Shown here in pieces: positions 1,555 to 14,372 of a stretch of DNA of 36,369 bases. The position numbers and the translations under genes are program-made. The notes under the pieces were generated by a model, which had not been told where the DNA came from, did not search any database, and saw only the letters and a program-made list of their open reading frames with translations. Numbering within the stretch: the stretch's first letter is position 1; each line of letters starts with the position of its first letter. The stretch comes from Bacteroidales bacterium (GTDB lineage Bacteria > Bacteroidota > Bacteroidia > Bacteroidales > JAIORY01). The DNA is taken from positions 1 through 36,369 of the forward strand of contig DAOVNY010000001.1 of the NCBI GenBank assembly GCA_030630005.1, read 5' to 3'.

Positions 1555-4500
1555 ATGGCATTTTTCCAAAACTCAGTAATTAATAAACATCTCAAAGCAT
1601 TAGATAATGAAGTTGTAAAAGCTGCTTATGCTAAGTTTAAAGACTATTTTCACAATCCTGAAATACAAAAAAATATACGTGAAGCCAAAGAAGAGCAATT
1701 TCAGGAAGGTTTTTTAAGAGAACTTTTTGTAAAAATCTTGGGATACACACTAAACCCACAACCAAACTACAACCTTACTACCGAGCTTAAAAACGAAAAG
1801 GGAGCAAAAAAAACAGACGGAGCTATTTTACATGATGGCAAAGCTTTAGCAGTTATAGAATTGAAAGGAACCGATACAAAAGACCTGGATAAAATAAATG
1901 CTCAGGCTTTTAACTATAAAAACAACCAAACGGGCTGTATTTATGTTATCACTTCCAATTTTGAAAAGCTGCGTTTTTTTATTCACAACTCCGTTGACCA
2001 TGTAGAATTTAATCTGTTTACACTTACCGAACAGGAATTTGAATTGCTTTGGTTGTGCTTGAGTGCTGACAGTTTGTTAGGTGGTATTCCGCTAAAAGTT
2101 AAAGAAGAAAGTTTATTAGCAGAAGAAAACATTACCAAGCAACTGTATAAAGATTATTCTACCTTTAAAACTGACTTATGGCAAAACATGGTAAAAAACA
2201 GTCCTGAGGCTGACCAATTGTTGCTATTTAAGAAAACCCAAAAACTCTTAGACCGTTTTCTGTTCATCTTTTTTGCCGAAGATAGCGGTTTGTTGCCTCC
2301 AAATTCAATTTCACGAATTGTAAAGCGATGGAATGTTTTGCAAGAAGAAGATGCATATAAACCTTTATACAATATCTTTAAACAGTATTTTGGCTACATC
2401 AATACCGGAAGAAAAGGCAAAAGCTTTCAAGACGATATTTTTGCCTACAACGGTGGATTGTTTTTTCCAGATGAAGTTTTGGACAATATCTTAATTGATG
2501 ATGATGTTTTGCACTTGCATGTAATGAAACTAACGGCTTACGATTTTCAAAGTGATATAGATGTAAATATTCTGGGACATATATTTGAAAATTCTCTAAA
2601 CGAAATTGAAAATGTAATTGCCAGATTAGAAGGAAAAGAAGTTGACAAAAATAAAACAAAGCGAAAAAAAGACGGAGTTTTTTATACTCCAAAATACATT
2701 ACCAAATACATAGTTGAAAATACAGTTGGTAAACTTTGTGAAGAAAAGAAAGCCAAATTAGGTGTTGTAGATGAAGAATATGCTAAAGGTCGGCAAAACC
2801 GCAAAAAAGAAACCCTTAAGAAATTGGATAAAAGTCTGCAAGCATATCGTGAGTGGTTGTTAAAAATTACCATTTGCGACCCTGCTTGCGGTAGTGGAGC
2901 TTTTTTGAATCAGGCTTTAGAGTTTTTAATTACCGAGCACGCCTATATTGATGAATTACAAGCTCAACTCATTGGGGCAAGTATTGTATTTCAGGATGTA
3001 AGTAACCATATTTTAGAGAAAAATATTTTTGGTGTTGATATTAATGAAGAAAGCGTAGATATAGCCAAACTCTCTTTATGGCTGCGAACCGCACAAAAAG
3101 GAAGAAAACTTACCACCTTGAATAATAACCTCAAATGTGGCAACTCATTAATTGATGATGCGGCTGTGGCAGGGGAGAAAGCTTTTATCTGGCAAAAGGA
3201 GTTTCCTCAGATTTTTAAAGAAAAAGATAAAAAGGCATGGCATGTGGTATTTGCTATTCATAATTCACGTTATGTGAAATTTACCGACGGGTTAACCCGT
3301 CGGTTTAATCGGTTTGAACCCGGCTTTATTGCTTATACATATCCGAAATTAAACTTACATGAGGAAGAAATACTTGCAGACTGTTTGAATGAAGTTGTAA
3401 AAGAAAAGCAATTAAATATTTTAGCTTGTAATATTTGTGAAGATCATGTGCATGCAATAATTGTATGCGACAAAGAAGAACTTGAAAAAAACATTGGGCA
3501 ATGGAAAGGTCGCACTGCCTACCTGTATAACAGACGGGTTAACCCGTCTATAGATGATCAGCAGCCTGAATATGCCGATGGCACAAAGCAAAAACTTTGG
3601 GCAAAAAGTTTTCACCCTGTGGAAATTACGAATGATACCCAAATGCAAAACACTTTGCATTATATCAAAAACAACCGAGGAAAACATGAACTGCCTGCAC
3701 CAACCGACGGGTTAACCCGTCGGTTGAAAGAGATGACCTGCACACCCGAACACGCCTTCCGAACCGAATATAAAGGCGGTTTTGATGTGGTGATTGGAAA
3801 TCCGCCGTATGTACAGGAACAAATAAAAGATATACACAAGTCCTATTATCAGAATAATTATAAGACTATTGAAGGAAAACCAGATTTATATAGGATATTT
3901 ATTGAAAAAGGATTGAATTTAATTCACAAAGAGGGTTGCTTTTCATTCATCACTCCAAATTCATTCTTGACAATACCATCAGCGAATAAACTTAGGGAAT
4001 TGATCAAACAAGAATCAACTCTTAAAAAGATAATTAATTTTGAAGGAATGGTATTTGAAACAGCAAATATCAATACCGTGATATTTGTAATTAACAAACC
4101 ACAGAAAAAAATACCAGTAATAATTACAAATGACATTTCTACTTCACCCACTCCTGACAGCTTAGCTAACTCACTTAGTAAAAGTTTTGAGTTAAATTAT
4201 GAAGATTATATGAATGAATCTTCTATAAATGTAGAATTCAATAACCCTTTAGAAAAAAGCATTATTAAAAAACTTCACAGTTGTTCATGTAAATTGGCTG
4301 ATATTGCCGAATATACTCTTGGCCTACAGGTGTATCATAACACCATGCATAACAAAGATCAGATTAAGAATAGAATTTATCATAACATATCTAAGATCGA
4401 TAATAGTTACATTCCCGAAATAGGAGGCAGAAACATAGAAAGATATGGATTAGATGATAATTTCAAAGAATTTGTTTCTTATGGTGAATGGTGCTATAAT

Positions 4501-5136
4501 AAACCAGATCCTCGTTTTATTAGCGATAAGAGAATTTTAATAAGGGAAATACCCGGTCCTAATCATTTGATATGTACAATGTTTACAAAAGAAGGAATAC
4601 CTAATAAAGCCATAATAATCGTCCGATCAGATAAAGAAAATCAATATTCAATTTTAGGTGTTTTAAATTCAAGACTTATAGGTTATTACATTCACAAAAC
4701 TACAGAGAAAGGTAAGCAGAAATTATTTCCTCGAATTTCTCTTACATCCATAAAAAATCTGCCAATGCCCACAAAATTTAATAAGCAAATTGAAATAAAG
4801 GTTAGTAATATAATGTCGAAGAAAGAAGTTTTAACTAACTTGTTAACTAATTTTTTAAAGCTCTTAATATCAAGAGCCAATCTCGATAAACCTTCTAATA
4901 AGCTGAAACGATGGAATGAATTGGATTTTAAAGAGTTTTTAAAAGAATTAAAAAAAGCCAAAGTACAACTTAGCTTACCGGAAGAAGCAGAGTGGATGCA
5001 ATACTTTAACGAACAGAAACAAAAAGCACAAGAAATTAAATCAGAAATTGAGAAAACCGACAAAGAAATAGACCAAATGGTTTATGAGTTGTATGGGTTG
5101 ACGGAGGAGGAGATTGGAATAGTGGAGAAAAATTAG
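1555..5136 (+). CDS. Type IIG restriction-modification enzyme (Eco57I/MmeI-like fused PD-(D/E)XK nuclease + gamma-class N6-adenine methyltransferase + TaqI_C-like specificity domain) carrying a nested HUH transposase-like domain
   Basis: N-terminal D88..E102-L-K104 (TDGAIL..VIELKG) nuclease motif. FYTP. SAM motif I D442-PACGSGAF. Motif IV N749-PPY preceded by GGFDVVIG. C-terminal part LNSRLIGYY..KLFPRISLTSIKNLP resembles a TaqI_C-type TRD. Tail ends YELYGLTEEEI. About 180 extra codons sit between motif III and motif IV (see the mobile_element feature). Confidence 0.85.
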   Translation: MAFFQNSVINKHLKALDNEVVKAAYAKFKDYFHNPEIQKNIREAKEEQFQEGFLRELFVKILGYTLNPQPNYNLTTELKNEKGAKKTDGAILHDGKALAVIELKGTDTKDLDKINAQAFNYKNNQTGCIYVITSNFEKLRFFIHNSVDHVEFNLFTLTEQEFELLWLCLSADSLLGGIPLKVKEESLLAEENITKQLYKDYSTFKTDLWQNMVKNSPEADQLLLFKKTQKLLDRFLFIFFAEDSGLLPPNSISRIVKRWNVLQEEDAYKPLYNIFKQYFGYINTGRKGKSFQDDIFAYNGGLFFPDEVLDNILIDDDVLHLHVMKLTAYDFQSDIDVNILGHIFENSLNEIENVIARLEGKEVDKNKTKRKKDGVFYTPKYITKYIVENTVGKLCEEKKAKLGVVDEEYAKGRQNRKKETLKKLDKSLQAYREWLLKITICDPACGSGAFLNQALEFLITEHAYIDELQAQLIGASIVFQDVSNHILEKNIFGVDINEESVDIAKLSLWLRTAQKGRKLTTLNNNLKCGNSLIDDAAVAGEKAFIWQKEFPQIFKEKDKKAWHVVFAIHNSRYVKFTDGLTRRFNRFEPGFIAYTYPKLNLHEEEILADCLNEVVKEKQLNILACNICEDHVHAIIVCDKEELEKNIGQWKGRTAYLYNRRVNPSIDDQQPEYADGTKQKLWAKSFHPVEITNDTQMQNTLHYIKNNRGKHELPAPTDGLTRRLKEMTCTPEHAFRTEYKGGFDVVIGNPPYVQEQIKDIHKSYYQNNYKTIEGKPDLYRIFIEKGLNLIHKEGCFSFITPNSFLTIPSANKLRELIKQESTLKKIINFEGMVFETANINTVIFVINKPQKKIPVIITNDISTSPTPDSLANSLSKSFELNYEDYMNESSINVEFNNPLEKSIIKKLHSCSCKLADIAEYTLGLQVYHNTMHNKDQIKNRIYHNISKIDNSYIPEIGGRNIERYGLDDNFKEFVSYGEWCYNKPDPRFISDKRILIREIPGPNHLICTMFTKEGIPNKAIIIVRSDKENQYSILGVLNSRLIGYYIHKTTEKGKQKLFPRISLTSIKNLPMPTKFNKQIEIKVSNIMSKKEVLTNLLTNFLKLLISRANLDKPSNKLKRWNELDFKEFLKELKKAKVQLSLPEEAEWMQYFNEQKQKAQEIKSEIEKTDKEIDQMVYELYGLTEEEIGIVEKN
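3283..3305. repeat. Palindrome copy 1: ACCGACGGGTTAACCCGTCGGT(T), a 22-nt perfect palindrome
   Basis: It is self-complementary by direct reading and translated as TDGLTRR. It is identical over 23 nt to the copy at 3703-3725. Confidence 0.95.
3532..3549. repeat. Palindrome copy 2: AGACGGGTTAACCCGTCT, an 18-nt perfect palindrome
   Basis: It shares the 16-nt core GACGGGTTAACCCGTC with copies 1 and 3. It is read in a different frame (RRVNPS). Confidence 0.95.
3703..3725. repeat. Palindrome copy 3: ACCGACGGGTTAACCCGTCGGT(T)
   Basis: This is a 23-nt direct repeat of 3283-3305, offset by exactly 420 nt (140 codons), and again translated as TDGLTRR. Confidence 0.95.
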
Positions 5137-5682: not shown

Positions 5683-6099
5683 ATGGTTGATGTCCACACA
5701 AAAGAAACGAGAAGTTACAATATGAGCCGGATCAAAGGTAAGGATACAAAACCAGAGATATTGGTTAGAAAGTTCTTGTTTTCTCAGGGATTTAGATATC
5801 GGTTGCATGATAAAAAATTACCGGGAAAGCCGGATTTAGTTTTTCCTAAGTACAAGAAAGTTGTATTTATACACGGTTGTTACTGGCATGGACATGAAGG
5901 ATGTAAATATTTCGTTCCACCCAAAACAAGAACAGAATGGTGGATGGATAAGATTAATGATAATAAAACAAGAGACGAAAAAAATATAGCAGAACTAAAA
6001 AAGAATATGTGGTATCCTATTATTATTTGGGAATGTGAATTAAAACCTGAAAAAAGAGAAAAAACTCTGAAAGCTTTGGTTAGAAAATTGAAAAAATAA
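5683..6099 (+). CDS. vsr: Very short patch repair endonuclease Vsr
   Basis: RSYNMSRIKGKDTKPE..GFRYRLH..LPGKPDLVFPKYKKVVFIHGCYWHGH matches the Vsr signature. Its stop codon abuts the dcm ATG. Confidence 0.92.
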   Translation: MVDVHTKETRSYNMSRIKGKDTKPEILVRKFLFSQGFRYRLHDKKLPGKPDLVFPKYKKVVFIHGCYWHGHEGCKYFVPPKTRTEWWMDKINDNKTRDEKNIAELKKNMWYPIIIWECELKPEKREKTLKALVRKLKK

Positions 6100-7332
6100 A
6101 TGAGTGATATTAAGTACATAGATTTATTTGCCGGTGCCGGTGGCTTGTCAGAAGGATTCATCAGGCAAGGATATAAACCAGTTGCTCATGTAGAATATGA
6201 TAAAGCCGCTTGCTTTACATTAAAAACCAGAGTTGCATTTCATTATCTGGTTAAATCTGGCAGAGAAGATATTTATTATTCATATCTGAAAGGTGAAATC
6301 AGCAGGGAAAAATTGTACGCTTGTGTCCCCCGCGAATTATTGGATACTGTAATCAATGCTGAAATAGGAAAAGAAAACCTGAATATCTTCAAAGCAATAG
6401 ATAATACTTTAAAAGGGGAAAAGGTAGATTTAATTATAGGAGGACCGCCTTGTCAGGCATATTCAATTGTTGGTCGTGCTCCACTTAAACACAAGAAGAA
6501 TGATGAACGTACAAAGCTTTATATTCAGTATGGTAGATTTTTGAAGAAATACCAACCCAAACTGTTTATATTTGAAAATGTTCCGGGAATCCTTTCTGCT
6601 GCTAAAGGTATGTACTTTAAAAATCTTCAGAAATATTATAAGCAATTAGGTTATCAGGTAAAGGCCAGATTACTCAATTCTTATGACTATGGAGTTATCC
6701 AGAACCGGAAGAGAATTATAATTATTGGTTGGCAAAAAGACTTTGAATTTTTATATCCTGAAATACAATCTGCAAAAAACAAGTATTTCAGAGATGAGAT
6801 ATTTTCGGATTTACCAGCAATTGAACCGGGAGAATCAAAAAGAGTACAGAAATATACAGCTAACACAAATGACTATTTAAGCCAAACATTTATTAGAAAT
6901 GGAGTTGATTTTGTTACCCAACATATAACAAGACCTCACAACAAAAAGGATTTAAGTATTTATAAATTAGCCATTGAACGACTTGAAAAAGGTAAGCAAC
7001 TAAAGAACAATCAAATTCCTGATAGTATGAGAACGCAAAAGAATACAACTGATTTTCTTGATCGTTTCAAAGTTGTTGACAAAGAACCTCACACATTAAT
7101 TGCACATATTGCAAAAGACGGACATCATTTTATTCATCCTGACAAAAAGCAGCTACGATCTATTTCTGTGAGGGAAGCTGCAAGAATTCAGTCATTTCCG
7201 GATGGCTACTATTTTGAAGGAATTAAAGAAAATCAACCAAGAACAGCAGCTTTCAGGCAAATTGGAAATGCTGTTCCTCCATTGATGGCTGAAAGAATAG
7301 CTGATAAAATAAAAGAGTTTTGGCATGAATAA
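6100..7332 (+). CDS. dcm: DNA (cytosine-5)-methyltransferase
   Basis: Motif I DLFAGAGGLSEGF; IV GGPPC118QAYS; VI ENVPG; VIII QNRKRIIIIG; IX RSISVREAARIQSFPD; X QIGNAVPPLMA. Confidence 0.95.
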   Translation: MSDIKYIDLFAGAGGLSEGFIRQGYKPVAHVEYDKAACFTLKTRVAFHYLVKSGREDIYYSYLKGEISREKLYACVPRELLDTVINAEIGKENLNIFKAIDNTLKGEKVDLIIGGPPCQAYSIVGRAPLKHKKNDERTKLYIQYGRFLKKYQPKLFIFENVPGILSAAKGMYFKNLQKYYKQLGYQVKARLLNSYDYGVIQNRKRIIIIGWQKDFEFLYPEIQSAKNKYFRDEIFSDLPAIEPGESKRVQKYTANTNDYLSQTFIRNGVDFVTQHITRPHNKKDLSIYKLAIERLEKGKQLKNNQIPDSMRTQKNTTDFLDRFKVVDKEPHTLIAHIAKDGHHFIHPDKKQLRSISVREAARIQSFPDGYYFEGIKENQPRTAAFRQIGNAVPPLMAERIADKIKEFWHE

Positions 7333-9706
7333 AAATATAGAAAGTGTAATATCATTGGAAGTAGAAAAGAATTCCAATTTAGAATTTTCTTTCCAAGAAT
7401 TATTGGACAGTTCAACTTTAAAAATACTCAGACCTCCATCTTATGGCAGTTTATCTATTTATGATAATGTAATTAGTTATGAGCCAAAACCTAATTATAC
7501 AGGAGAGGACTTTTTTACTTACACCAATGAAAAAGAGTTAAGGGGGATTATTGCTCTCACCATAAAAGATACCGTATTTAACCCAAGAGCAAGACTTCTA
7601 ATTCAGCTTGGAAATCAGTTAATTAAAAACGAAAGTATTGCACTAATTGAACTTGCTAAAAATTCTTTCGATGCGGATGCAAGTTATTGCAACGTAACTT
7701 TGAAGCATGTGGAAGATAAAAATTCGGGTATAATTATGGTGGAGGATAATGGTTTTGGAATGGATATAAAAACTGTTAAAGATGTTTGGCTTGAGCCAGG
7801 AAGCGATAATAAGCAAATCCTAGTTAAGAAAAAGGAGGTTACGCCAAAATATAAAAGACTACCAATTGGAGAAAAAGGTATTGGTCGGTTTGGAGTTCAT
7901 AAGTTAGGTAAGAAAATTGAAATGGTTTCCCGAGCGAAAGGAAGCAAAGAAGTTGTTGTTAGAATAGATTGGGAGAAATTTAAAAAATTTAAGTACTTAA
8001 ATGAAGCCCCTGTTGAAGTGTTAGAAAGAGAACCTAAAACTTTTACTGCTGATGCTACTGGAACAAAGATTACTATAAGTAAGCTCACAAAAAACTGGAC
8101 TAAAGGAATGACAAGGGATGTTTTTCGTGCGCTTAATGGAATTTCCACACCTCCTACCTATGATATAGAAGATATTATTAATCCTGACTTGTTTTCAAAA
8201 TTACAAAAAAATAAAATCGATAGTTTTGAAGCTAATCTTTTAACAGATAGATCTGATTGGATTAAAAATATTCCTTCATGGAATAAAATACTTGAATATT
8301 CTTTGTTCTTTTTTGATATAGAAATTGATAATGACAAAATTACAAGTTTTAAATACAAATTCAAACCATGGGATAGATTTAGTGGAATTGAAGGGAGAGA
8401 AATAACCCACAAAGATTTACCTATTAAAGATTTGCTTGATATTTCAGATCCAACAAAAAGAAAGTTCGTTCCGTTGACTTTTGAAGGATTGAAAATAGGT
8501 AAGTTTCAGTTTAAAGGTTGTGTTTTCATTCGTGATCGTTTCGTTTTTAAACTTTTTAACATTCAGCAAACATCACTTACTGGTTATTTGGATAATAACG
8601 GAGGTATTAGAGTATATCGAAACGGAGTGAGGGTTTATGACTACGGTGAAAGGGAAAATGACTGGTTAGCTCTTGATTATAGGAGGTTCAATGACCCTGG
8701 AGTTAGATTGAGTAATAATCTAATGCTAGCTTCTATAAATCTTAGTAGAGAGAATAGTTCTGATCTTATTGAAAAAACTAACAGGGAAGGTTTTATTGAT
8801 AATGATGCTTATAACGTATTCAAAAAACAAATTACTTATTCGTTAAAGCTAATCGAATTATTAAGGTTAGAGGATAAGCGAAAAATTGATAATAAATACA
8901 AACCCAGGAAAGACACTGAACCAGTTCTCAAATCAATTGAAGGATTAAGATCTCTGGTAAGTGAAAAAGTTAAGGATAAGAAAATTCAAAAAGAGTTAAA
9001 GGTATACGTAGATCGTATCGAGAAGAATTACCGTTTTATGAATGATACATTGATGAAGACTGCTAGTGCAGGATTAGGATGGAGTGTATATATTCACGAA
9101 ATAGAGAAGATTATTGCTGAGATAATTAAGGTTCTTGAAAGGGATAAAGCGTCTGAACGAATAATGAAATTAACGGCTCATTTATCTGAACTAATTGAAA
9201 GCTATGCACAGATTTTAAGGCGTACAACAAGGAGTAGTCAAACTTTGTCCAAGGTTGTTGATCAGGCATTGTTTAATGTTGAATATCGCTTAAATGCGCA
9301 CGGTGTTAAAATTGAACGTCCTGATCTACAAAGAAGTTCGGTTAAAGTTTCTGTAGCCAGAAACCTTTTGGTTTCAAACATTATGAACATAATTGATAAT
9401 TCGATTTATTGGCTAGATAGGTCTCAAAAGAAAAACAAAATAATTCGATTCGACATTGCAGAAATTGAAGTAGGATATATTTCTCTGGTAATCTCAGATA
9501 ATGGAACAGGTTTCTCACTATCACCGGAACAAATGAAAGAGCCATTTGTTTCTGCAAAACCTGGGGGAATGGGTTTAGGACTCCATATTGTTTCAGAAGT
9601 AATGGCAAGTCATAAAGGGAAAGTTACATTTAATGAGGATGGCAATTATGAAGTGCCGAAAGGTTTTGTTGATGGAGCAACAGTAATACTAAATTTTAAA
9701 ATTTAG
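7325..9706 (+). CDS. Dual GHKL-ATPase protein: N-terminal Hsp90/MORC-type ATPase + DHp-like H-box + C-terminal histidine-kinase-type catalytic domain
   Basis: The start overlaps the dcm stop by 8 nt. N-terminal GHKL: ELAKN113SFDADA, VED141NGFGMD, GEKGIGRFG (182-190). H-box-like GLGWSVYIH591EIEKII. C-terminal CA: NIIDN692SIYW, SD725NGTGF, G747GMGLGLHIV. aa ~35-80 resemble an Ig/cadherin-like stub (GSLSIYDNVISYEPKPNYTGEDFFTYT). Confidence 0.7.
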   Translation: MNKNIESVISLEVEKNSNLEFSFQELLDSSTLKILRPPSYGSLSIYDNVISYEPKPNYTGEDFFTYTNEKELRGIIALTIKDTVFNPRARLLIQLGNQLIKNESIALIELAKNSFDADASYCNVTLKHVEDKNSGIIMVEDNGFGMDIKTVKDVWLEPGSDNKQILVKKKEVTPKYKRLPIGEKGIGRFGVHKLGKKIEMVSRAKGSKEVVVRIDWEKFKKFKYLNEAPVEVLEREPKTFTADATGTKITISKLTKNWTKGMTRDVFRALNGISTPPTYDIEDIINPDLFSKLQKNKIDSFEANLLTDRSDWIKNIPSWNKILEYSLFFFDIEIDNDKITSFKYKFKPWDRFSGIEGREITHKDLPIKDLLDISDPTKRKFVPLTFEGLKIGKFQFKGCVFIRDRFVFKLFNIQQTSLTGYLDNNGGIRVYRNGVRVYDYGERENDWLALDYRRFNDPGVRLSNNLMLASINLSRENSSDLIEKTNREGFIDNDAYNVFKKQITYSLKLIELLRLEDKRKIDNKYKPRKDTEPVLKSIEGLRSLVSEKVKDKKIQKELKVYVDRIEKNYRFMNDTLMKTASAGLGWSVYIHEIEKIIAEIIKVLERDKASERIMKLTAHLSELIESYAQILRRTTRSSQTLSKVVDQALFNVEYRLNAHGVKIERPDLQRSSVKVSVARNLLVSNIMNIIDNSIYWLDRSQKKNKIIRFDIAEIEVGYISLVISDNGTGFSLSPEQMKEPFVSAKPGGMGLGLHIVSEVMASHKGKVTFNEDGNYEVPKGFVDGATVILNFKI

Positions 9707-9709
9707 CAT

Positions 9710-11116
9710 ATGATTATACCAAAAAATGGGCGAGTGGTAATATTAGATGACAAAAAGGAACAGGCTTTTCCATTAATTAATATTTTGTCAAAAAATAAAA
9801 TTCCTTTTACTTATCATTCTGATGACATAGAACTTTTGCCAGATGTGGATCAGCAATATGATGATATTAGACTTCTATTTTTGGATGTAAATCTTTCAGC
9901 TGATGGAACACCAAAAGAAACCATAAAATCACAATTACAGTCTACGCTACAAAGAATTATTAAACCGGGGACTCCGTATATAGCAGCAATATGGAGTTTG
10001 AAAGAAAATGAATATGAAGACCTATTAAATGATCTATTTCAAAATCGCATTCCGGAAATTCAGCCCTTACTAAGAATATCATTGACTAAAAATGATTTTT
10101 TCGATTTGGTAAAATTTGATGAAGGAAAAGAAAATGAAAGATATGAATATGTTGAATGTGATGTAATTATGGATAAGCTAAACAGTAAGATTTTCGAATC
10201 CTTAAATCAATTAGATGCTTTGGAACCATTGATTAAATGGGAAAATATTATTCAAAATTCAATTTCTTCTGTTATTAGTGACATAATTGAAATCTCAAAA
10301 AAAGACCTGAATAACAATCTTAAAAAAATTTATTACAAGTTAGCTCAAGCATACTGGGGTAAACAACTTAAATCAAAAAGTGACAGTGAAATAACTCAGA
10401 AAGCTCTGCAGAGTTTAAATAACATTTTGATAGATAAAATTGAAAGCGATCTAAGAAACAAAGGTGATTTTGCATTAATTAATTGTGTCAATTACCCTGT
10501 CGAATTTGATATTAATTTTACAGCAATATTAAATTGTAAATTGTTGCTATCAATTGATAATTCAACTGAAATAGTTCCTGGTAATTTATATCAAATTGAT
10601 AATGACGATGTAAAAAAGAAAATCATTGAAGATGCTGTAGATCGAAGTCGTTTCATAAAAGATTATTCTCATGAAAATGGATTTAATCATGAAGATGTCA
10701 TTGATAAAGAAGGAAAGATAATAGAAAAACATAAGAAGTCATTTCAGAAATTTTCATTTAGACAAATACCCAAACTTATTGAAAGGGTGAAGTATATTGA
10801 AATAGAATTAACACCTATATGCGATTTTTCACAAAATAACTGGGTGCAAAACCGAATTTTGCCTGGAGTTTTAATATGTGAAAATGATGTAAAGTATTTG
10901 AAAAGTAATACTGATTATTTCTATTTATCACCAAGTATTATGTACGATGATATAATAGTCAGAATAATGCTTGATTTTAGGTTTTTGAAAGCAGAACCTT
11001 TTGAAAAATTCAAAGGTGTACAATCTATTTTTCGTCTAAAGCACTTAATATTTTCCGATATTCAATCTCAGCTTTCAAGGCATATAAATAGGCCGGGGGT
11101 AGTTTATGTAAATTAA
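9710..11116 (+). CDS. Receiver (CheY-like REC) domain protein with an uncharacterised ~330-aa C-terminal domain
   Basis: It starts 3 nt after the upstream stop. RVVILD13D14, IRLLFLD59VNLSADG, YIAAIWS96 and LRISLTK127 reproduce the spacing of the CheY D12/D13/D57/T87/K109 residues. I recognise no motif in the rest of the protein. Confidence 0.5.
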   Translation: MIIPKNGRVVILDDKKEQAFPLINILSKNKIPFTYHSDDIELLPDVDQQYDDIRLLFLDVNLSADGTPKETIKSQLQSTLQRIIKPGTPYIAAIWSLKENEYEDLLNDLFQNRIPEIQPLLRISLTKNDFFDLVKFDEGKENERYEYVECDVIMDKLNSKIFESLNQLDALEPLIKWENIIQNSISSVISDIIEISKKDLNNNLKKIYYKLAQAYWGKQLKSKSDSEITQKALQSLNNILIDKIESDLRNKGDFALINCVNYPVEFDINFTAILNCKLLLSIDNSTEIVPGNLYQIDNDDVKKKIIEDAVDRSRFIKDYSHENGFNHEDVIDKEGKIIEKHKKSFQKFSFRQIPKLIERVKYIEIELTPICDFSQNNWVQNRILPGVLICENDVKYLKSNTDYFYLSPSIMYDDIIVRIMLDFRFLKAEPFEKFKGVQSIFRLKHLIFSDIQSQLSRHINRPGVVYVN

Positions 11117-11886
11117 TGATGGCAAAAAATAATTGGACAAAGAAAGAACATATTGTTGCATTCAATCTTTATTGTAAGATTCCATTCACTAAGATAAATG
11201 CAACTTATCCTCCTGTCAAAGAATTGGCTAAAATAATAGGCCGTTCAAACGGCTCTGTAGCCATGAAACTTGCCAATTTTGCAAGGCTTGATCCGGCTTT
11301 AAAAGCAAGAGATGTTTCTGGTTTAACACAAGGTGCAAAGGGAGAAGAAGTAGTTTGGGCTGAATTCAATGGAAACTGGGAGGAACTTGCTTGGCAAAGT
11401 GAAAAAATATTGGCTAGTTACAAAAATGAACCTATTGAGGTAACAACTGAAATTATTACAGATGATTTACCATCGGAAGGAAAAGAAAAAGAAGCAGTTG
11501 TTAAAACAAGAGTTAACCAATCATTTTTCAGAAAGACAATTCTGGCATCATATAATTACAGTTGTTGTATAACCGGTATTTCAATTCAGGAATTGCTTAT
11601 TGCAAGCCATATTATTCCATGGTCAGTGAATAAAGAAAGTAGAATGAATCCATCAAACGGTCTTTGTCTTAATTCACTCCACGACAAAGCATTTGATAAA
11701 GGATTGATAACAGTTACTCCTGACTACCGAATTAAATTATCAGAAGTTATTTTACATAATCGAAATACAGAAACTTCAGGATTCTTTTTACCATATGAAA
11801 ATAAACCTATTAGACTTCCGCAAAAGTTCTATCCGGAAAAGGAATTTCTCAAATGGCACAATAAAAATGTTTTCATTGACTCATAA
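11116..11886 (+). CDS. HNH endonuclease (HNH_2 / COG3183-type predicted restriction endonuclease)
   Basis: TAATG overlap with the upstream gene. The N-terminal region RSNGSVAMKLANFARLDP is typical of COG3183. The C-terminal region is QSFFRKTILASYNYSCCITG..LLIASH165IIPW..N181GLCLNSLH189DKAFDKGLI. Confidence 0.8.
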   Translation: MMAKNNWTKKEHIVAFNLYCKIPFTKINATYPPVKELAKIIGRSNGSVAMKLANFARLDPALKARDVSGLTQGAKGEEVVWAEFNGNWEELAWQSEKILASYKNEPIEVTTEIITDDLPSEGKEKEAVVKTRVNQSFFRKTILASYNYSCCITGISIQELLIASHIIPWSVNKESRMNPSNGLCLNSLHDKAFDKGLITVTPDYRIKLSEVILHNRNTETSGFFLPYENKPIRLPQKFYPEKEFLKWHNKNVFIDS

Positions 11887-11980: not shown

Positions 11981-12820
11981 ATGTCTTTAAAAATTGCCAT
12001 TGCATACGATTTTGACGGTACACTGTCGCCAGGCAATATGCAGGAACATTCATTTATTCCCAAACTAAGAATTAATAAAGATGCTTTTTGGAAGAAGGCA
12101 AATGCCAAAGCAAAGCAACAAGATATGGACGAAGTACTGGCATATATGCAACTAATGCTTCAAAAAGCCGATGAAAAAAATATTCCTATCACAAAAAAAG
12201 CTTTTTTTGATCATGGCAAAGAAATAGTTTTTTTTGAAGGTGTTTATAACTTTTTTAACAGGATAAATAAGTACGCAGCAGAAAGAAATGTCAAAATCGA
12301 ACATTATATAATTTCTTCGGGCATTAGAGATATTATTAAAGGAACATCCATAGCAAAATTTTTTACAAATATTTTTGCTTCCGGCTTTGTGTTTGATGCA
12401 AACGATGTGGCGGTATGGCCGGCTCTGGCAATCAATTATACTAATAAAACCCAATATCTTTTCAGAATAAATAAAGGAATTAATAATTCTTATGATAATA
12501 CTAAAATCAACAAATTTGTAGAGTACGACAAACGACCAATACCTTTTTCGCGTATGATTTACATCGGCGATGGAGAAACTGATGTGCCTGCTATGAAAAT
12601 GATAAAATATCGTGGCGGCACTGCAATTGCTGTTTACGATCCCAAAAAAGAAAAGAAAAATGATAAATTATCACCTAAACAAATCTGCGAAAAACTAATC
12701 GAACAACAACGGGCAGATTTTATAGCTTCTGCTGATTATACTAAAAATTCTAAGCTTGATAATATTATTAAAACTTTGATAAATAAAATTGTTGAAGAGG
12801 AAAAACTTAAGCTTTTTTAA
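11981..12820 (+). CDS. HAD-superfamily hydrolase/phosphatase
   Basis: Motif I AYDFDGTLS; motif II IISSG; motif IV YIGDGETDVPAM. Confidence 0.75.
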   Translation: MSLKIAIAYDFDGTLSPGNMQEHSFIPKLRINKDAFWKKANAKAKQQDMDEVLAYMQLMLQKADEKNIPITKKAFFDHGKEIVFFEGVYNFFNRINKYAAERNVKIEHYIISSGIRDIIKGTSIAKFFTNIFASGFVFDANDVAVWPALAINYTNKTQYLFRINKGINNSYDNTKINKFVEYDKRPIPFSRMIYIGDGETDVPAMKMIKYRGGTAIAVYDPKKEKKNDKLSPKQICEKLIEQQRADFIASADYTKNSKLDNIIKTLINKIVEEEKLKLF

Positions 12821-12852: not shown

Positions 12853-13018
12853 AACATTGAGTCCACTCCGAAAAGTCATTTGTTTTGGACTAAAGTCCAT
12901 AAACACCTAATAATCAATAGCCCCGACCTTAAGGTCGGGGTAAGTCAAATGGTTGATAATACGGGCTTTAGCCCAAAAGAAATTTAATTTATAGACTTTT
13001 CTGAGTGGACTCAACATT
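12853..13018. repeat. Structured palindromic element (MITE/REP-cluster-like or ncRNA): a long outer stem enclosing three short hairpins
   Basis: The outer arms TTGAGTCCACTCcGAAAAGTC (12857-12877) and GACTTTTCtGAGTGGACTCAA (12994-13014) form 21 bp with one mismatch. The inner hairpins are TGGACT-AA-AGTCCA (12886-12899), CCCCGACCTTAAGGTCGGGG (12921-12940, a perfect 20-nt palindrome) and GGGCT-TT-AGCCC (12963-12974). Confidence 0.7.
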
Positions 13019-13190: not shown

Positions 13191-14372
13191 TTATAAGTTC
13201 TTTAGTTTTTCTGAAACTTCATTATATTTTTCAACATTACCTCTTCTGGAGTAAATTTGTTTTAACGAGAACAAAGTGCTATAATCATCAGGCTGTAATT
13301 CGTAAGCTTTTTCAAGAATCGGAAGTGATTTATTCATAAAATCATCGCCTATATTTTTCAATTTATCGTAATTTTCATCACCAAAAGGTAATACATCAGC
13401 TTTAAGAATATTATTTACTCCTCTGTTAAAATATAATGCTCCAAGATTATAAATGGCATCAAAGAAATCAGACTGAAGTTCTATAGCTTTTTTATATGCT
13501 TTTTCCGCTTCTATAAATGCATCATCTTGTTCTTTTTCTGTTTTTATTGTATCATTAACAATTCTATCATACATAGAACCAACTGCGGAATATATTGAAG
13601 CATTTGTTGTATCGGTTTTAAGTGCTTGTTTCAAATTATCAAGGGCTTTTCCGGTTTCTCCTGCATTTAACAATAAGTTAGTTTCAGTAATTAAAATAGG
13701 AAAATCTTCAGGGTATCTCTCCCTACCTATTTGAATGTATTCCAATGCCTTAACAGAGTCACCTTCAACTTTATAATAATCAGTCAAGGTAATATACATT
13801 ACGGAATTATTGTAATTATAATCAATCAACATTGCATATCTTTTCTTTGCAAGATCATAATTTTTAGCTAATCCAGCAGAGATAGCCGAATTAAATAAGG
13901 CACCTGTATCAATATTTGTTTTTGATATGTCTTTATTTACTCCAAACGCATTGAAAAAATTAATAGAAGCATCGTTATATTCCTTTGCATTATAATATCT
14001 TACAGCTTTATTATAATATTGTTCTGCACAAGCTATTATTCTTGGTAAAATATCAGTAAGAAATCTACCTTTAGTATCAAGTTCGCGAGCTTTAATATAA
14101 GATGCAAGGGCTTTATCTATACATTCCGGATCGATATCCTTATATTTTTCGTTATCTGTCATAGCTATTTCAAGATAAATATTTCCCCTGTAATACCATG
14201 TTTTAGCATCGTTAATTGTTTTTTCATGCTTTGCAGCAGCATCTATACAATTTTTTGCTTTGTCTAATTTTCCATGACTTAAGTGGTTATATGCACTTGT
14301 TCTTTTTGAATTTTGTGCGAAAATTGAACCGGCTGTCATTAAAATGATCAATAAAATTGCAATTTTTTTCAT
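13191..14372 (-). CDS. Secreted tetratricopeptide-repeat (TPR) protein
   Basis: Signal peptide MKKIAILLIILMTAGSIFA. Repeated A/Y/N-rich TPR-like helices are present (YYRGNIYLE, AVRYYNAKEYNDA, YNLGALYFNRG). Confidence 0.7.
   Translation of the reverse strand: MKKIAILLIILMTAGSIFAQNSKRTSAYNHLSHGKLDKAKNCIDAAAKHEKTINDAKTWYYRGNIYLEIAMTDNEKYKDIDPECIDKALASYIKARELDTKGRFLTDILPRIIACAEQYYNKAVRYYNAKEYNDASINFFNAFGVNKDISKTNIDTGALFNSAISAGLAKNYDLAKKRYAMLIDYNYNNSVMYITLTDYYKVEGDSVKALEYIQIGRERYPEDFPILITETNLLLNAGETGKALDNLKQALKTDTTNASIYSAVGSMYDRIVNDTIKTEKEQDDAFIEAEKAYKKAIELQSDFFDAIYNLGALYFNRGVNNILKADVLPFGDENYDKLKNIGDDFMNKSLPILEKAYELQPDDYSTLFSLKQIYSRRGNVEKYNEVSEKLKNL

Follow-up and report, generated by a model that had tools for sequence, protein, structure and literature searches.

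Tyrosine transposases associated with repetitive extragenic palindromes (REPs), known as RAYTs, have posed a long-standing question since their first description, namely what they do and how REP hairpins are copied. RAYTs are usually single-copy and immobile amid hundreds of dispersed REPs, and cause and effect are hard to separate. Here we describe a cassette, a RAYT-like Y1 HUH domain, nested in frame within a Type IIG restriction-modification (R-M) enzyme of a Bacteroidales bacterium (assembly GCA_030630005.1), on a stretch of 36,369 nucleotides (contig DAOVNY010000001.1, positions 1 to 36,369; hereafter the window). Its nearest known system is the REPtron, a RAYT (TnpA_REP) together with its REPs (subclass 2.4 or Bertels group 4, Cyanobacteria and Bacteroidetes; PMC6006769, PMC3733652). 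The two share the Y1 HUH fold, the pairing of one protein with one co-varying family of short GC-stem palindromes, and REP arrays around stand-alone relatives, and the tyrosine motif of the cassette, YIxNNR, is like the YIxNNP of subclass 2.4. Unlike in REPtrons, the RAYT of the cassette is an in-frame restriction-enzyme domain with no gene of its own, its HuH motif is DHxH and not NHxH, its palindromes are perfect, symmetric and free of the GTAG tag, they are confined to the host gene in the sampled DNA instead of being dispersed, and the cassette is exchanged among alleles. In-frame REPs between HuH and Y have been described within RAYT genes, in a survey that left out proteins longer than expected, taking them for fusions or errors (Quentin et al. 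2018, PMC6006769), and intragenic REPs have been described in other genes (Di Nocera et al. 2013, PMC3733652).

Other described systems resemble the cassette in part. The IS200/IS605 TnpA transposases (IS608, ISDra2; PDB 2A6M, 2XM3) are its best structural and sequence matches in the PDB, and it is predicted to share their hairpin-guided cutting and rejoining of single-stranded DNA (ssDNA); unlike them, it has no subterminal imperfect left-end and right-end hairpins outside the open reading frame (ORF), and there is no tnpB or second copy in the window. Rickettsia palindromic elements (RPEs) likewise place short palindromic DNA in frame in surface loops, where it is tolerated as flexible peptide, an analogy that a first-pass annotation of this DNA had drawn and that proved apt. 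However, RPEs measure 100-150 bp, occur in many unrelated genes and have no linked transposase, whereas the palindrome units of the cassette measure 16-42 nt and occur only in the gene that carries the Y1 domain. With inteins, homing introns and IStrons (an IStron being a group I intron with an IS605-like transposase), the cassette has in common a conserved catalytic site, a patchy presence in close orthologues, movement between alleles with co-conversion of the flanks and a host gene that is not destroyed; unlike inteins and IStrons, it is removed neither from the RNA nor from the protein, and the mature enzyme retains it as an additional domain. On the side of the host, MmeI, BpuSI, Eco57I and the BREX protein PglX share the layout and fold of the enzyme (nuclease, helical region, gamma-class methyltransferase and target-recognition domain), but in none of these references, solved or modelled, are motifs III and IV separated by a domain. 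Our literature search turned up no account of an R-M enzyme that contains a Y1 or RAYT domain, most subscription-journal papers being outside its reach, which agrees with the first-pass annotation in knowing of no such architecture. The architecture is already in public databases under automatic names, and some homologues carry the name 'methylase subunit/REP element-mobilizing transposase RayT' from the JGI pipeline.

A Y1 HUH domain within a Type IIG enzyme

The host gene (1555..5136, + strand, as are all coding features of the gene given below) encodes an intact Eco57I/MmeI-like Type IIG enzyme of 1193 aa, identified by Pfam, PADLOC and fold matches. The ORF matched the Pfam families Eco57I (1.7e-43), N6_Mtase, MmeI_Mtase, MmeI_hel and TaqI_C, and PADLOC labelled it REase_MTase_IIG (1012 bits); this profile has 1066 positions, the length of an insert-less enzyme, and its match ends at aa 576, while PADLOC has no family corresponding to the insert. 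A single polypeptide combines a PD-(D/E)xK nuclease (D88...E102-x-K104; 1816..1866), gamma-class N6A methyltransferase (MTase) motifs I (DPACGSG, aa 442-448; 2878..2898) and IV (NPPY, aa 749-752; 3799..3810, nine residues past the cassette), all invariant among 77 aligned homologues, and a TaqI_C-like target-recognition domain (TRD; aa 954-1070 by Pfam; 4414..4764), and this composition places the protein in the Type IIG class, where the first-pass annotation had put it from the same hallmarks. The AlphaFold (AF2) model of the whole protein has a mean pLDDT of 83.6, and outside the insert it gave fold matches to BrxX/PglX, CamA, BpuSI, MmeI and M.TaqI.

Alignment with 120 homologues set the borders of the cassette at aa 555-739 (3217..3771), supported by Pfam, AF2 and Foldseek. 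The window protein reads EFPQIF-KEKDKKAWHVVF...EHAFRTEY-KGGFDVVIGNPPY, whereas insert-less orthologues have a 2-residue linker at the same point, e.g., EFPEIF-DK-GGFDVVIGNPPY; the approximately 180 extra codons that had been noticed earlier in a normally short connector are therefore borne out by the alignment. The insert is in frame and lacks its own start and stop codons, and its GC content exceeds that of its surroundings, as previously stated, albeit modestly (G+C of 0.38-0.445 vs. 0.28-0.38). Pfam Y1_Tnp (PF01797) matched at aa 599-707, between the two halves of the Eco57I match (E = 1.2e-10; 42-43.8 bits vs. a gathering score of 23), while the scores against the NCBIfam models REP_Tyr_transpos (NF047646, 51.4-54.7 bits) and IS200 (NF033573, 31.6-35.7 bits) were under the curated cut-offs of 80 and 55, respectively. 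The insert contains the beta1 strand W562-H563-V-V-F566 (3238..3252; AF2 strand 560-567) with an invariant H563, the HUH motif D630-H631-V632-H633 (3442..3453; AF2 strand 631-638) with the D and first H invariant and the second H nearly so, and the catalytic tyrosine Y703 (3661..3663; AF2 helix 694-710) in LHYIKNNRGKH, in which Y703, N707, R708 and the final H are invariant. Across 21 inserts sharing 32-66% identity, save one close relative at 92%, the residues H563, D630, H631, H633, Y703, N707 and R708 are invariant or nearly so, and the complete Y1 signature read in the first-pass annotation is upheld.

Structure prediction gave the same picture. In the AF2 model, the insert folds compactly as beta-alpha-beta-beta-alpha-beta-alpha, with a short strand (554-556) on one side and beta4 (739-741) on the other, and modelled alone it reached a pLDDT of 81.5 and a pTM of 0.80. 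A Foldseek search of the insert model against the PDB returned Y1 transposases as all of the top 30 matches, including ISDra2 (7e-7), IS608, Sulfolobus IS200 and the E. coli RAYT 4ER8 (TMq 0.51). The profile score, the HUH motif on a beta strand with a single Tyr on a C-terminal helix, and the fold all assign the insert to the Y1 HUH superfamily (PF01797). These results confirm that the insert is a genuine and complete Y1 HUH domain lying in frame within a Type IIG enzyme. An intein was ruled out by the junctions (F/KEK...TEY/K), which have no Cys/Ser/Thr nucleophile pattern, and an intron or IStron by an Rfam scan of 2900-4100 that gave no match at E <= 1.

We further compared the insert family, with its motifs DH[VIM]H, LW[AT]QK[FY] and YIxNNRxKH, with the class-2 RAYT signatures (NHxH or DH[LF]H; W[EQ]; YIxxNP; PMC6006769). 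The Y motif is nearest to that of subclass 2.4 (YIxNNP), whereas the HuH motif is nearer to class 1 or subclass 2.2. In the strict sense, the cassette is only partly a RAYT: it has cognate REP hairpins that co-vary with the protein, but in place of a free-standing gene with dispersed REPs there is a domain within another ORF, whose palindrome is restricted to the cassette in the 36 kb and to the host gene in relatives. It is not an IS200/IS605 insertion sequence, as it scores under the NCBIfam cut-off and its perfect hairpins lie within coding sequence. Of the earlier label 'IS200- or RAYT-like', the RAYT half fits better and the IS200 half less well.

Palindromes that accompany the Y1 domain

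A repeat scan of window 3000-4000 located three perfect palindromes in the insert, which the first-pass annotation had overlooked and which identify the module as a REP/RAYT-type unit. Copy 1 (ACCGACGGGTTAACCCGTCGGT, 22 nt; 3283..3304) is read as TDGLTRR in the loop between beta1 and alpha1 (site 1; hairpin dG -11 kcal/mol), copy 2 (AGACGGGTTAACCCGTCT, 18 nt; 3532..3549) is read in another frame as RRVNPS in the loop that joins the post-HUH helix to the LWAKSF strand (site 2; dG -6.8 kcal/mol), and copy 3 (CAACCGACGGGTTAACCCGTCGGTTG, 26 nt; 3701..3726) is again read as TDGLTRR, past the Tyr helix (site 3; dG -13.7 kcal/mol, z -6.3). Copies 1 and 3 are spaced 420 nt (140 codons) apart. The 36-kb window has three copies of the 16-nt core GACGGGTTAACCCGTC, all of them within the insert, compared with 0.01 expected. 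Two of the copies fall in low-confidence loops of the AF2 insert model, copy 1 within loop 574-596 and copy 2 at the start of the site-2 loop 663-686. As ssDNA, the palindromes are predicted to fold into 7-11-bp stems with a 4-nt TTAA loop. Since identical palindrome DNA is read in different frames (TDGLTRR/RRVNPS; NKGACSLV/TREHAPLS), the constraint appears to act on the DNA and not on the peptide. G-T is over-represented at the first mismatch (0.17 vs. 0.06 expected), an excess that does not discriminate DNA from RNA hairpins; the perfect Watson-Crick symmetry and the two reading frames nevertheless favor constraint at the DNA level.

The same pattern recurs across the family. Nearly every insert contains 1-3 perfect palindromes at offsets of ~65-107, 310-390 and 460-540 nt from the insert start, usually of the form (A)CAAGGGG-xxx/xxx-CCCCTTG(T) with centres such as ATTAAT, CTTAAG, GCATGC, ACATGT, TTGCAA and TTTAAA, and the copies are near-identical inside one insert but differ from insert to insert. 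Perfect palindromes of at least 14 nt number 88 in 43.5 kb of inserts (2.0 per kb), compared with 0.21 per kb outside, and over all loci we counted 197 distinct GC-rich palindromes of at least 16 nt (16-42 nt, mode 20-22 nt).

We then focused on 80 metagenomic loci picked solely by similarity to aa 1-552, and scored full-length genes for GC-rich perfect palindromes of at least 16 nt. Such palindromes were found in 15 of the 19 insert-bearing genes (22 in cassettes and 10 elsewhere in the gene, the latter in 6 of the 19), whereas none was present in the 52 insert-less genes (161 kb), and none of that type in 77 kb of flanking DNA. The closest insert-less gene (L081; empty site GAAATATTTGATAAAGGTGGT) is likewise free of them. 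The hairpins accordingly depend on the presence of the Y1 domain in cis. A genome-wide repeat striking the gene by chance was therefore rejected, because the palindromes are absent from the flanks and from the 52 insert-less orthologues. Separately, the flank of one insert-less homologue (L141) holds four copies of a GTAG-tagged palindrome, GTAGAGACGTTGCATGCAACGTCTCTAC, outside the gene; these repeats represent a REP family of the classical type, with no relation to the palindromes of the cassette.

Within cassette-bearing hosts, the palindromes outside the cassette also lie in frame and in surface loops, at query residues ~91-97, 214-220, 358-365, 413, 535-540, 853, 1109-1115 and 1133-1138, where they encode insertions of approximately eight or more residues (e.g., TRGHAPLS, NKGINPLV, TREHAPLS and TDGLTRQ). 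The site at aa 91-97 is the turn of the nuclease beta-hairpin between D88 and E102xK104, at which 13 relatives carry palindrome-encoded insertions and the window gene is palindrome-free. At this site, half-palindromes partly expanded in tandem were also observed in L044, L077, L072 and L082 (HAPLQLHAPLQLHAP; EHAPSPIDHAPSPIDHAPSPIDH), which suggests slippage or repeated nick-repair at hairpins.

Distribution, exchange and genomic settings

PF01797 occurs at the same place in about half of the 120 best homologues. Scanning one genome per species, we found that at least 204 genomes encode a relative of the cassette; these are mostly Bacteroidota, with some Chlorobiota/Ignavibacteria, Gracilibacteria, Victivallales, Neomarinimicrobiota and Balneolaceae. 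In practically all of the 80 fetched loci, the Y1 domain lies ~180 residues past motif I and 120-170 residues ahead of NPPY, and the remoter multidomain matches, some with other N-termini, are also Eco57I/MmeI-type enzymes split at the same point. The cassette-bearing host ORFs are usually intact, with intact nuclease and MTase motifs. Given that the architecture recurs in more than 200 independent assemblies, it is neither a chance event nor an assembly artefact. Among the ways in which its reading could fail, the first-pass annotation had named an assembly chimera and an ordinary linker present in all family members without the HUH and Tyr residues; the recurrence refutes the former, and the latter is at odds with a segment that about half of the members carry and in which HUH and Tyr are kept.

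Two side observations concern the edges of this distribution. In a Candidatus Gracilibacteria locus (L006, 2721-3239), the ORF of a cassette relative is broken under genetic code 11, likely because UGA encodes glycine in this lineage (code 25); in that case, the architecture would extend to bacteria of the candidate phyla radiation, the group that includes Gracilibacteria. In addition, several insert-less homologues have odd linkers of 7-22 residues ahead of GGFDVVIGNPPY, namely KEKALPDETLVKS in P0044, and DPLSGSVS and DPSTSSGG in P0034, P0064 and P0076, with SRGAASDVASANRALPDGAKAKS as a further example in the set formed by these and P0007. The odd linkers resemble cassette ends or palindrome-encoded peptides and, speculatively, may be footprints of imprecise cassette loss.

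Comparison of the parts of the gene revealed that the cassette has a history of its own. Over all 120 homologues, identity to the query across aa 1-552 was 60-89%, with the top ones coming from different phyla, and the C-terminal half was only 25-57% identical to any homologue. At 80-89% identity in aa 1-552, both insert-less (P0001, P0019, P0036) and insert-bearing (P0006, P0011, P0013) proteins were found, and the inserts of the latter were only ~40% identical to that of the window. Conversely, the closest inserts (P0017 and P0005; 92-95% identical when inserts were realigned separately) sit in hosts whose N-termini are only 67-68% identical. In nucleotide sequence, the window and L082 (the gene of P0017) were 93-98% identical over 3232-3769 but only 50-77% in the upstream and 47-71% in the downstream flank, and this high cassette identity with a distantly related host gene indicates recent exchange of a tract at 3236..3806, with a sharp left edge near 3236 and a right edge between ~3746 and 3806. 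In other locus pairs, the insert was 8-18 points more similar than the upstream flank. ATAAA(G)G strings occur at both junctions and are suggestive only.

On an N-terminal tree of 121 proteins (neighbour-joining, without support values), cassette presence or absence requires at least 27 changes (random mean 40, minimum 30). Insert distances correlated weakly with those of the N-terminal part (Mantel r = 0.20, p ~0.004) and not significantly with those of the C-terminal half (r = 0.06). These results show that the cassette assorts independently of both host halves and was recently acquired in the window gene. Between the window and L082, the insert has a dS of 0.21 and a dN of 0.021 (dN/dS 0.10), which points to purifying selection on the insert protein. 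Moreover, in the pairs L007/L009 and L015/L017, which are near-identical in the N-terminus and cassette, a swap of the TRD starts right past NPPY.

Relatives also exist outside restriction enzymes. An earlier word-indexed search with the insert alone had given a single match, a 189-aa fragment, and was uninformative, whereas an exhaustive profile search of 1.84 billion representatives yielded 1311 matches; among the best 149 of these, 66 are embedded in R-M enzymes and 66 are free-standing ORFs of 150-250 aa. One free-standing member (P0184) adjoins the 3' side of an hsdR-hsdM-hsdS operon and is accompanied by a 28-nt perfect palindrome, CGAACAAGGGAGCATGCTCCCTTGTTCG, with 11 copies in intergenic tandem arrays and one within the P0184 ORF, at the position that corresponds to site 2. 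These arrays (L083 1893-2366, 3656-3928 and 4635-4874) lie between hsdM and hsdS (110-nt period), between hsdS and the Y1 gene, and 3' of the Y1 gene (94-nt period); the palindrome itself is invariant, with spacers that are ~75-82% alike. The arrays are CRISPR-like only superficially, the spacers being mutually related. Another member (P0199) stands among housekeeping genes, with a palindrome of its own once within the ORF and once at its 3' end, and other free-standing members have similar flanking repeats and no R-M remnants. In P0161 (L168 1-760), by contrast, the Y1 ORF lies between R-M remnants, with the N-terminal fragment EEEYQDGFLK nearly abutting upstream and a degenerate motif IV, SGFDVEISNPP, downstream; this position between the remains of a decayed R-M gene indicates that the module can outlive its host. 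The idea that all stand-alone relatives are mis-called fragments was rejected: the L168 case is a remnant, and the others are genuine small genes with REP arrays. In a neighbour-joining domain tree (178 columns, without support values and indicative only), embedded and free-standing domains are intermixed and require 18 or more switches between the two forms, where 500 random shuffles gave a mean of 32 and a minimum of 24. A tblastn search of the insert against plasmid and phage collections gave no match and thus no sign of a plasmid or phage vehicle. The free-standing relatives with arrays of the same palindromes indicate that the cassette is a RAYT/REP ('REPtron')-type module nested in frame.

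The window gene itself has a chromosomal setting, with a DEAD-box helicase on one side and gyrA/clpB on the other. Directly 3' of it lies a second restriction-type cluster (5683-11886) consisting of vsr (5683-6099), a C5 cytosine methylase (dcm, 6100-7332), a 793-aa GHKL/HATPase_c_3 protein with a weak PADLOC REase_II match (7325-9706), a 468-aa ORF without an assigned family (9710-11116) and an HNH nuclease (11116-11886; PADLOC HNH, 304 bits). Further along, a 20-nt perfect palindrome, CCCCGACCTTAAGGTCGGGG (12921-12940), stands between the convergent ORFs 11981-12820 (+, HAD-like) and 13191-14372 (-, TPR). Its sequence is unrelated to the cassette palindrome, and it may act as a terminator in both directions or belong to another REP-type element.

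Candidate explanations and their meaning

Taken as a whole, the evidence makes it probable that a RAYT-class Y1 domain with its own REP-like hairpins resides in the Type IIG enzyme as a semi-autonomous passenger and not as a required part of the enzyme. We favor this explanation because the cassette is often absent from close orthologues and survives the decay of its host. Whenever the gene became single-stranded in replication or transcription, the palindromes would form hairpins with stems of 7-11 bp and loops of 4 nt; these would be bound by the Y1 domain, which, with a metal held by H631/H633, would cut and rejoin ssDNA through a 5'-phosphotyrosine on Y703. Such cutting and rejoining may plant hairpin copies nearby, of which selection would keep only those in frame and in tolerant loops. 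The cassette as a whole would spread among alleles, much as homing elements do, by recombination over the conserved flanking codons (EFPxxF, GGFDVVIGNPPY) that Y1 nicks might promote, and could be lost again, while the host enzyme would tolerate it as a self-folding domain in a surface loop. Of the two readings offered in the first-pass annotation, that of a tolerated selfish insertion is thus the better supported, although an element 'parked' as a one-off does not describe a cassette found in at least 204 species-level genomes at one conserved site.

Several points weigh against the passenger explanation. Transposition, hairpin cleavage and excision are all inferred, and a cassette restricted to one position of a single protein family could equally well stem from one ancient insertion, with homologous recombination of the ordinary kind and loss thereafter. 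The hairpins of IS608 and of E. coli REPs are imperfect and strand-specific, whereas the palindromes of the cassette have perfect symmetry and, within the sampled flanks, are confined to the gene; the domain scores under the NCBI RAYT and IS200 cut-offs, with DHxH and YIxNNR motifs that differ from those published for class-2 RAYTs. The nominal Fisher probabilities for the association in cis (p = 4e-12 and 2e-4) are indicative only, as the genes are not phylogenetically independent, and the tree behind the presence/absence count carries no support values. The contrast between cassette and flank is sharp only for the window and L082; in L093/L122 it is soft, blurred by conserved flanks. Finally, strong purifying selection, wide retention and a stand-alone relative beside a Type I R-M operon would suit a host-beneficial role equally.

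We regard as possible, if doubtful, the stronger proposal of an autonomous 'in-frame transposon', a Y1 domain on a DNA-tracking enzyme that excises and inserts itself via intragenic hairpins and homes ahead of motif IV; if true, this would parallel inteins at the level of DNA, without ever undergoing splicing. The main rival to the passenger explanation, slightly less probable again, is the other reading of the first-pass annotation, less supported than the selfish one, in which a domesticated Y1 domain adds a second, ssDNA- or hairpin-directed activity to the restriction enzyme, for example nicking or covalent capture of single-stranded or hairpin/cruciform DNA of phages, plasmids or transforming DNA, and the palindromes in its own gene are by-products or autoregulatory sites. 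Such a role would account for catalytic residues that stay invariant across inserts of only 35-45% identity, for the dN/dS of 0.10, for retention in at least 204 species with usually intact host ORFs and intact nuclease and MTase motifs, for a cassette that always adjoins the catalytic NPPY loop, and for the relative that directly follows an hsdR-hsdM-hsdS operon. It is harder to reconcile with the absence of the cassette from about half of the closest orthologues (80-89% identical over aa 1-552), with the 27 or more presence/absence flips, with a module that outlives its host gene in L168 and with other stand-alone relatives beside housekeeping genes. Moreover, seeding palindromes into its own gene is REPtron behaviour with no obvious use in defence, and PADLOC, as noted, has no family for the insert.

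An improbable alternative is that the Y1 domain and its hairpins form a recombination device, serving as site-specific strand-exchange points that shuffle modules between alleles (nuclease/helical/MTase-N, cassette, and MTase-C with TRD) and so diversify specificity. The almost independent assortment of the three gene segments, the TRD swaps that start just past NPPY in L007/L009 and L015/L017, and palindrome hot spots near domain boundaries (aa ~91-97, 214-220, 358-365, 535-540 and 1109-1138) are what such a device would produce; yet insert-less genes, which are free of palindromes, show the same mosaic of a conserved N-terminal and a variable C-terminal part, and the window has no silent TRD cassettes nearby. 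That the insert is an inert relic, an old IS200-like insertion now serving as a functionless family-specific linker, is very unlikely: its single fixed site, the lack of its own start or stop codon and scores under the NCBIfam IS200 and RAYT cut-offs would fit, but not the invariant HUH and Tyr, the dN/dS of 0.10, the confidently predicted Y1 fold, the perfect and co-varying palindromes or the recent exchange. Least credible of all is an assembly chimera or sequencing artefact that fused a transposase to a methylase, a notion prompted by the unusual architecture alone and refuted by the recurrence of the same in-frame junctions across over 200 independently assembled genomes and in numerous metagenomes of separate projects.

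For the study of RAYTs, the cassette offers a compact system, with one Y1 domain and a few cognate hairpins in one 3.6-kb gene, with natural controls in orthologues 80-89% identical over the N-terminal 552 residues that have neither the domain nor any hairpin, and with new hairpin copies that can be read directly as in-frame peptide insertions; these properties make RAYT-driven hairpin seeding directly testable. The finding also points to a blind spot in surveys, as 'too long' Y1 proteins were previously discarded as fusions or errors. For the enzymes, which serve as tools, it reveals that Type IIG loops accept insertions of 8-30 residues and of 185 residues, even in the PD-ExK hairpin and beside NPPY, and it brings to light a level of modularity in the evolution of the Type IIG family that had gone unrecognised. 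As a tolerated passenger, the cassette would represent a third lifestyle of a mobile element inside a living gene: inteins leave the protein, IStrons leave the RNA, and the cassette would be translated as a tolerated domain.

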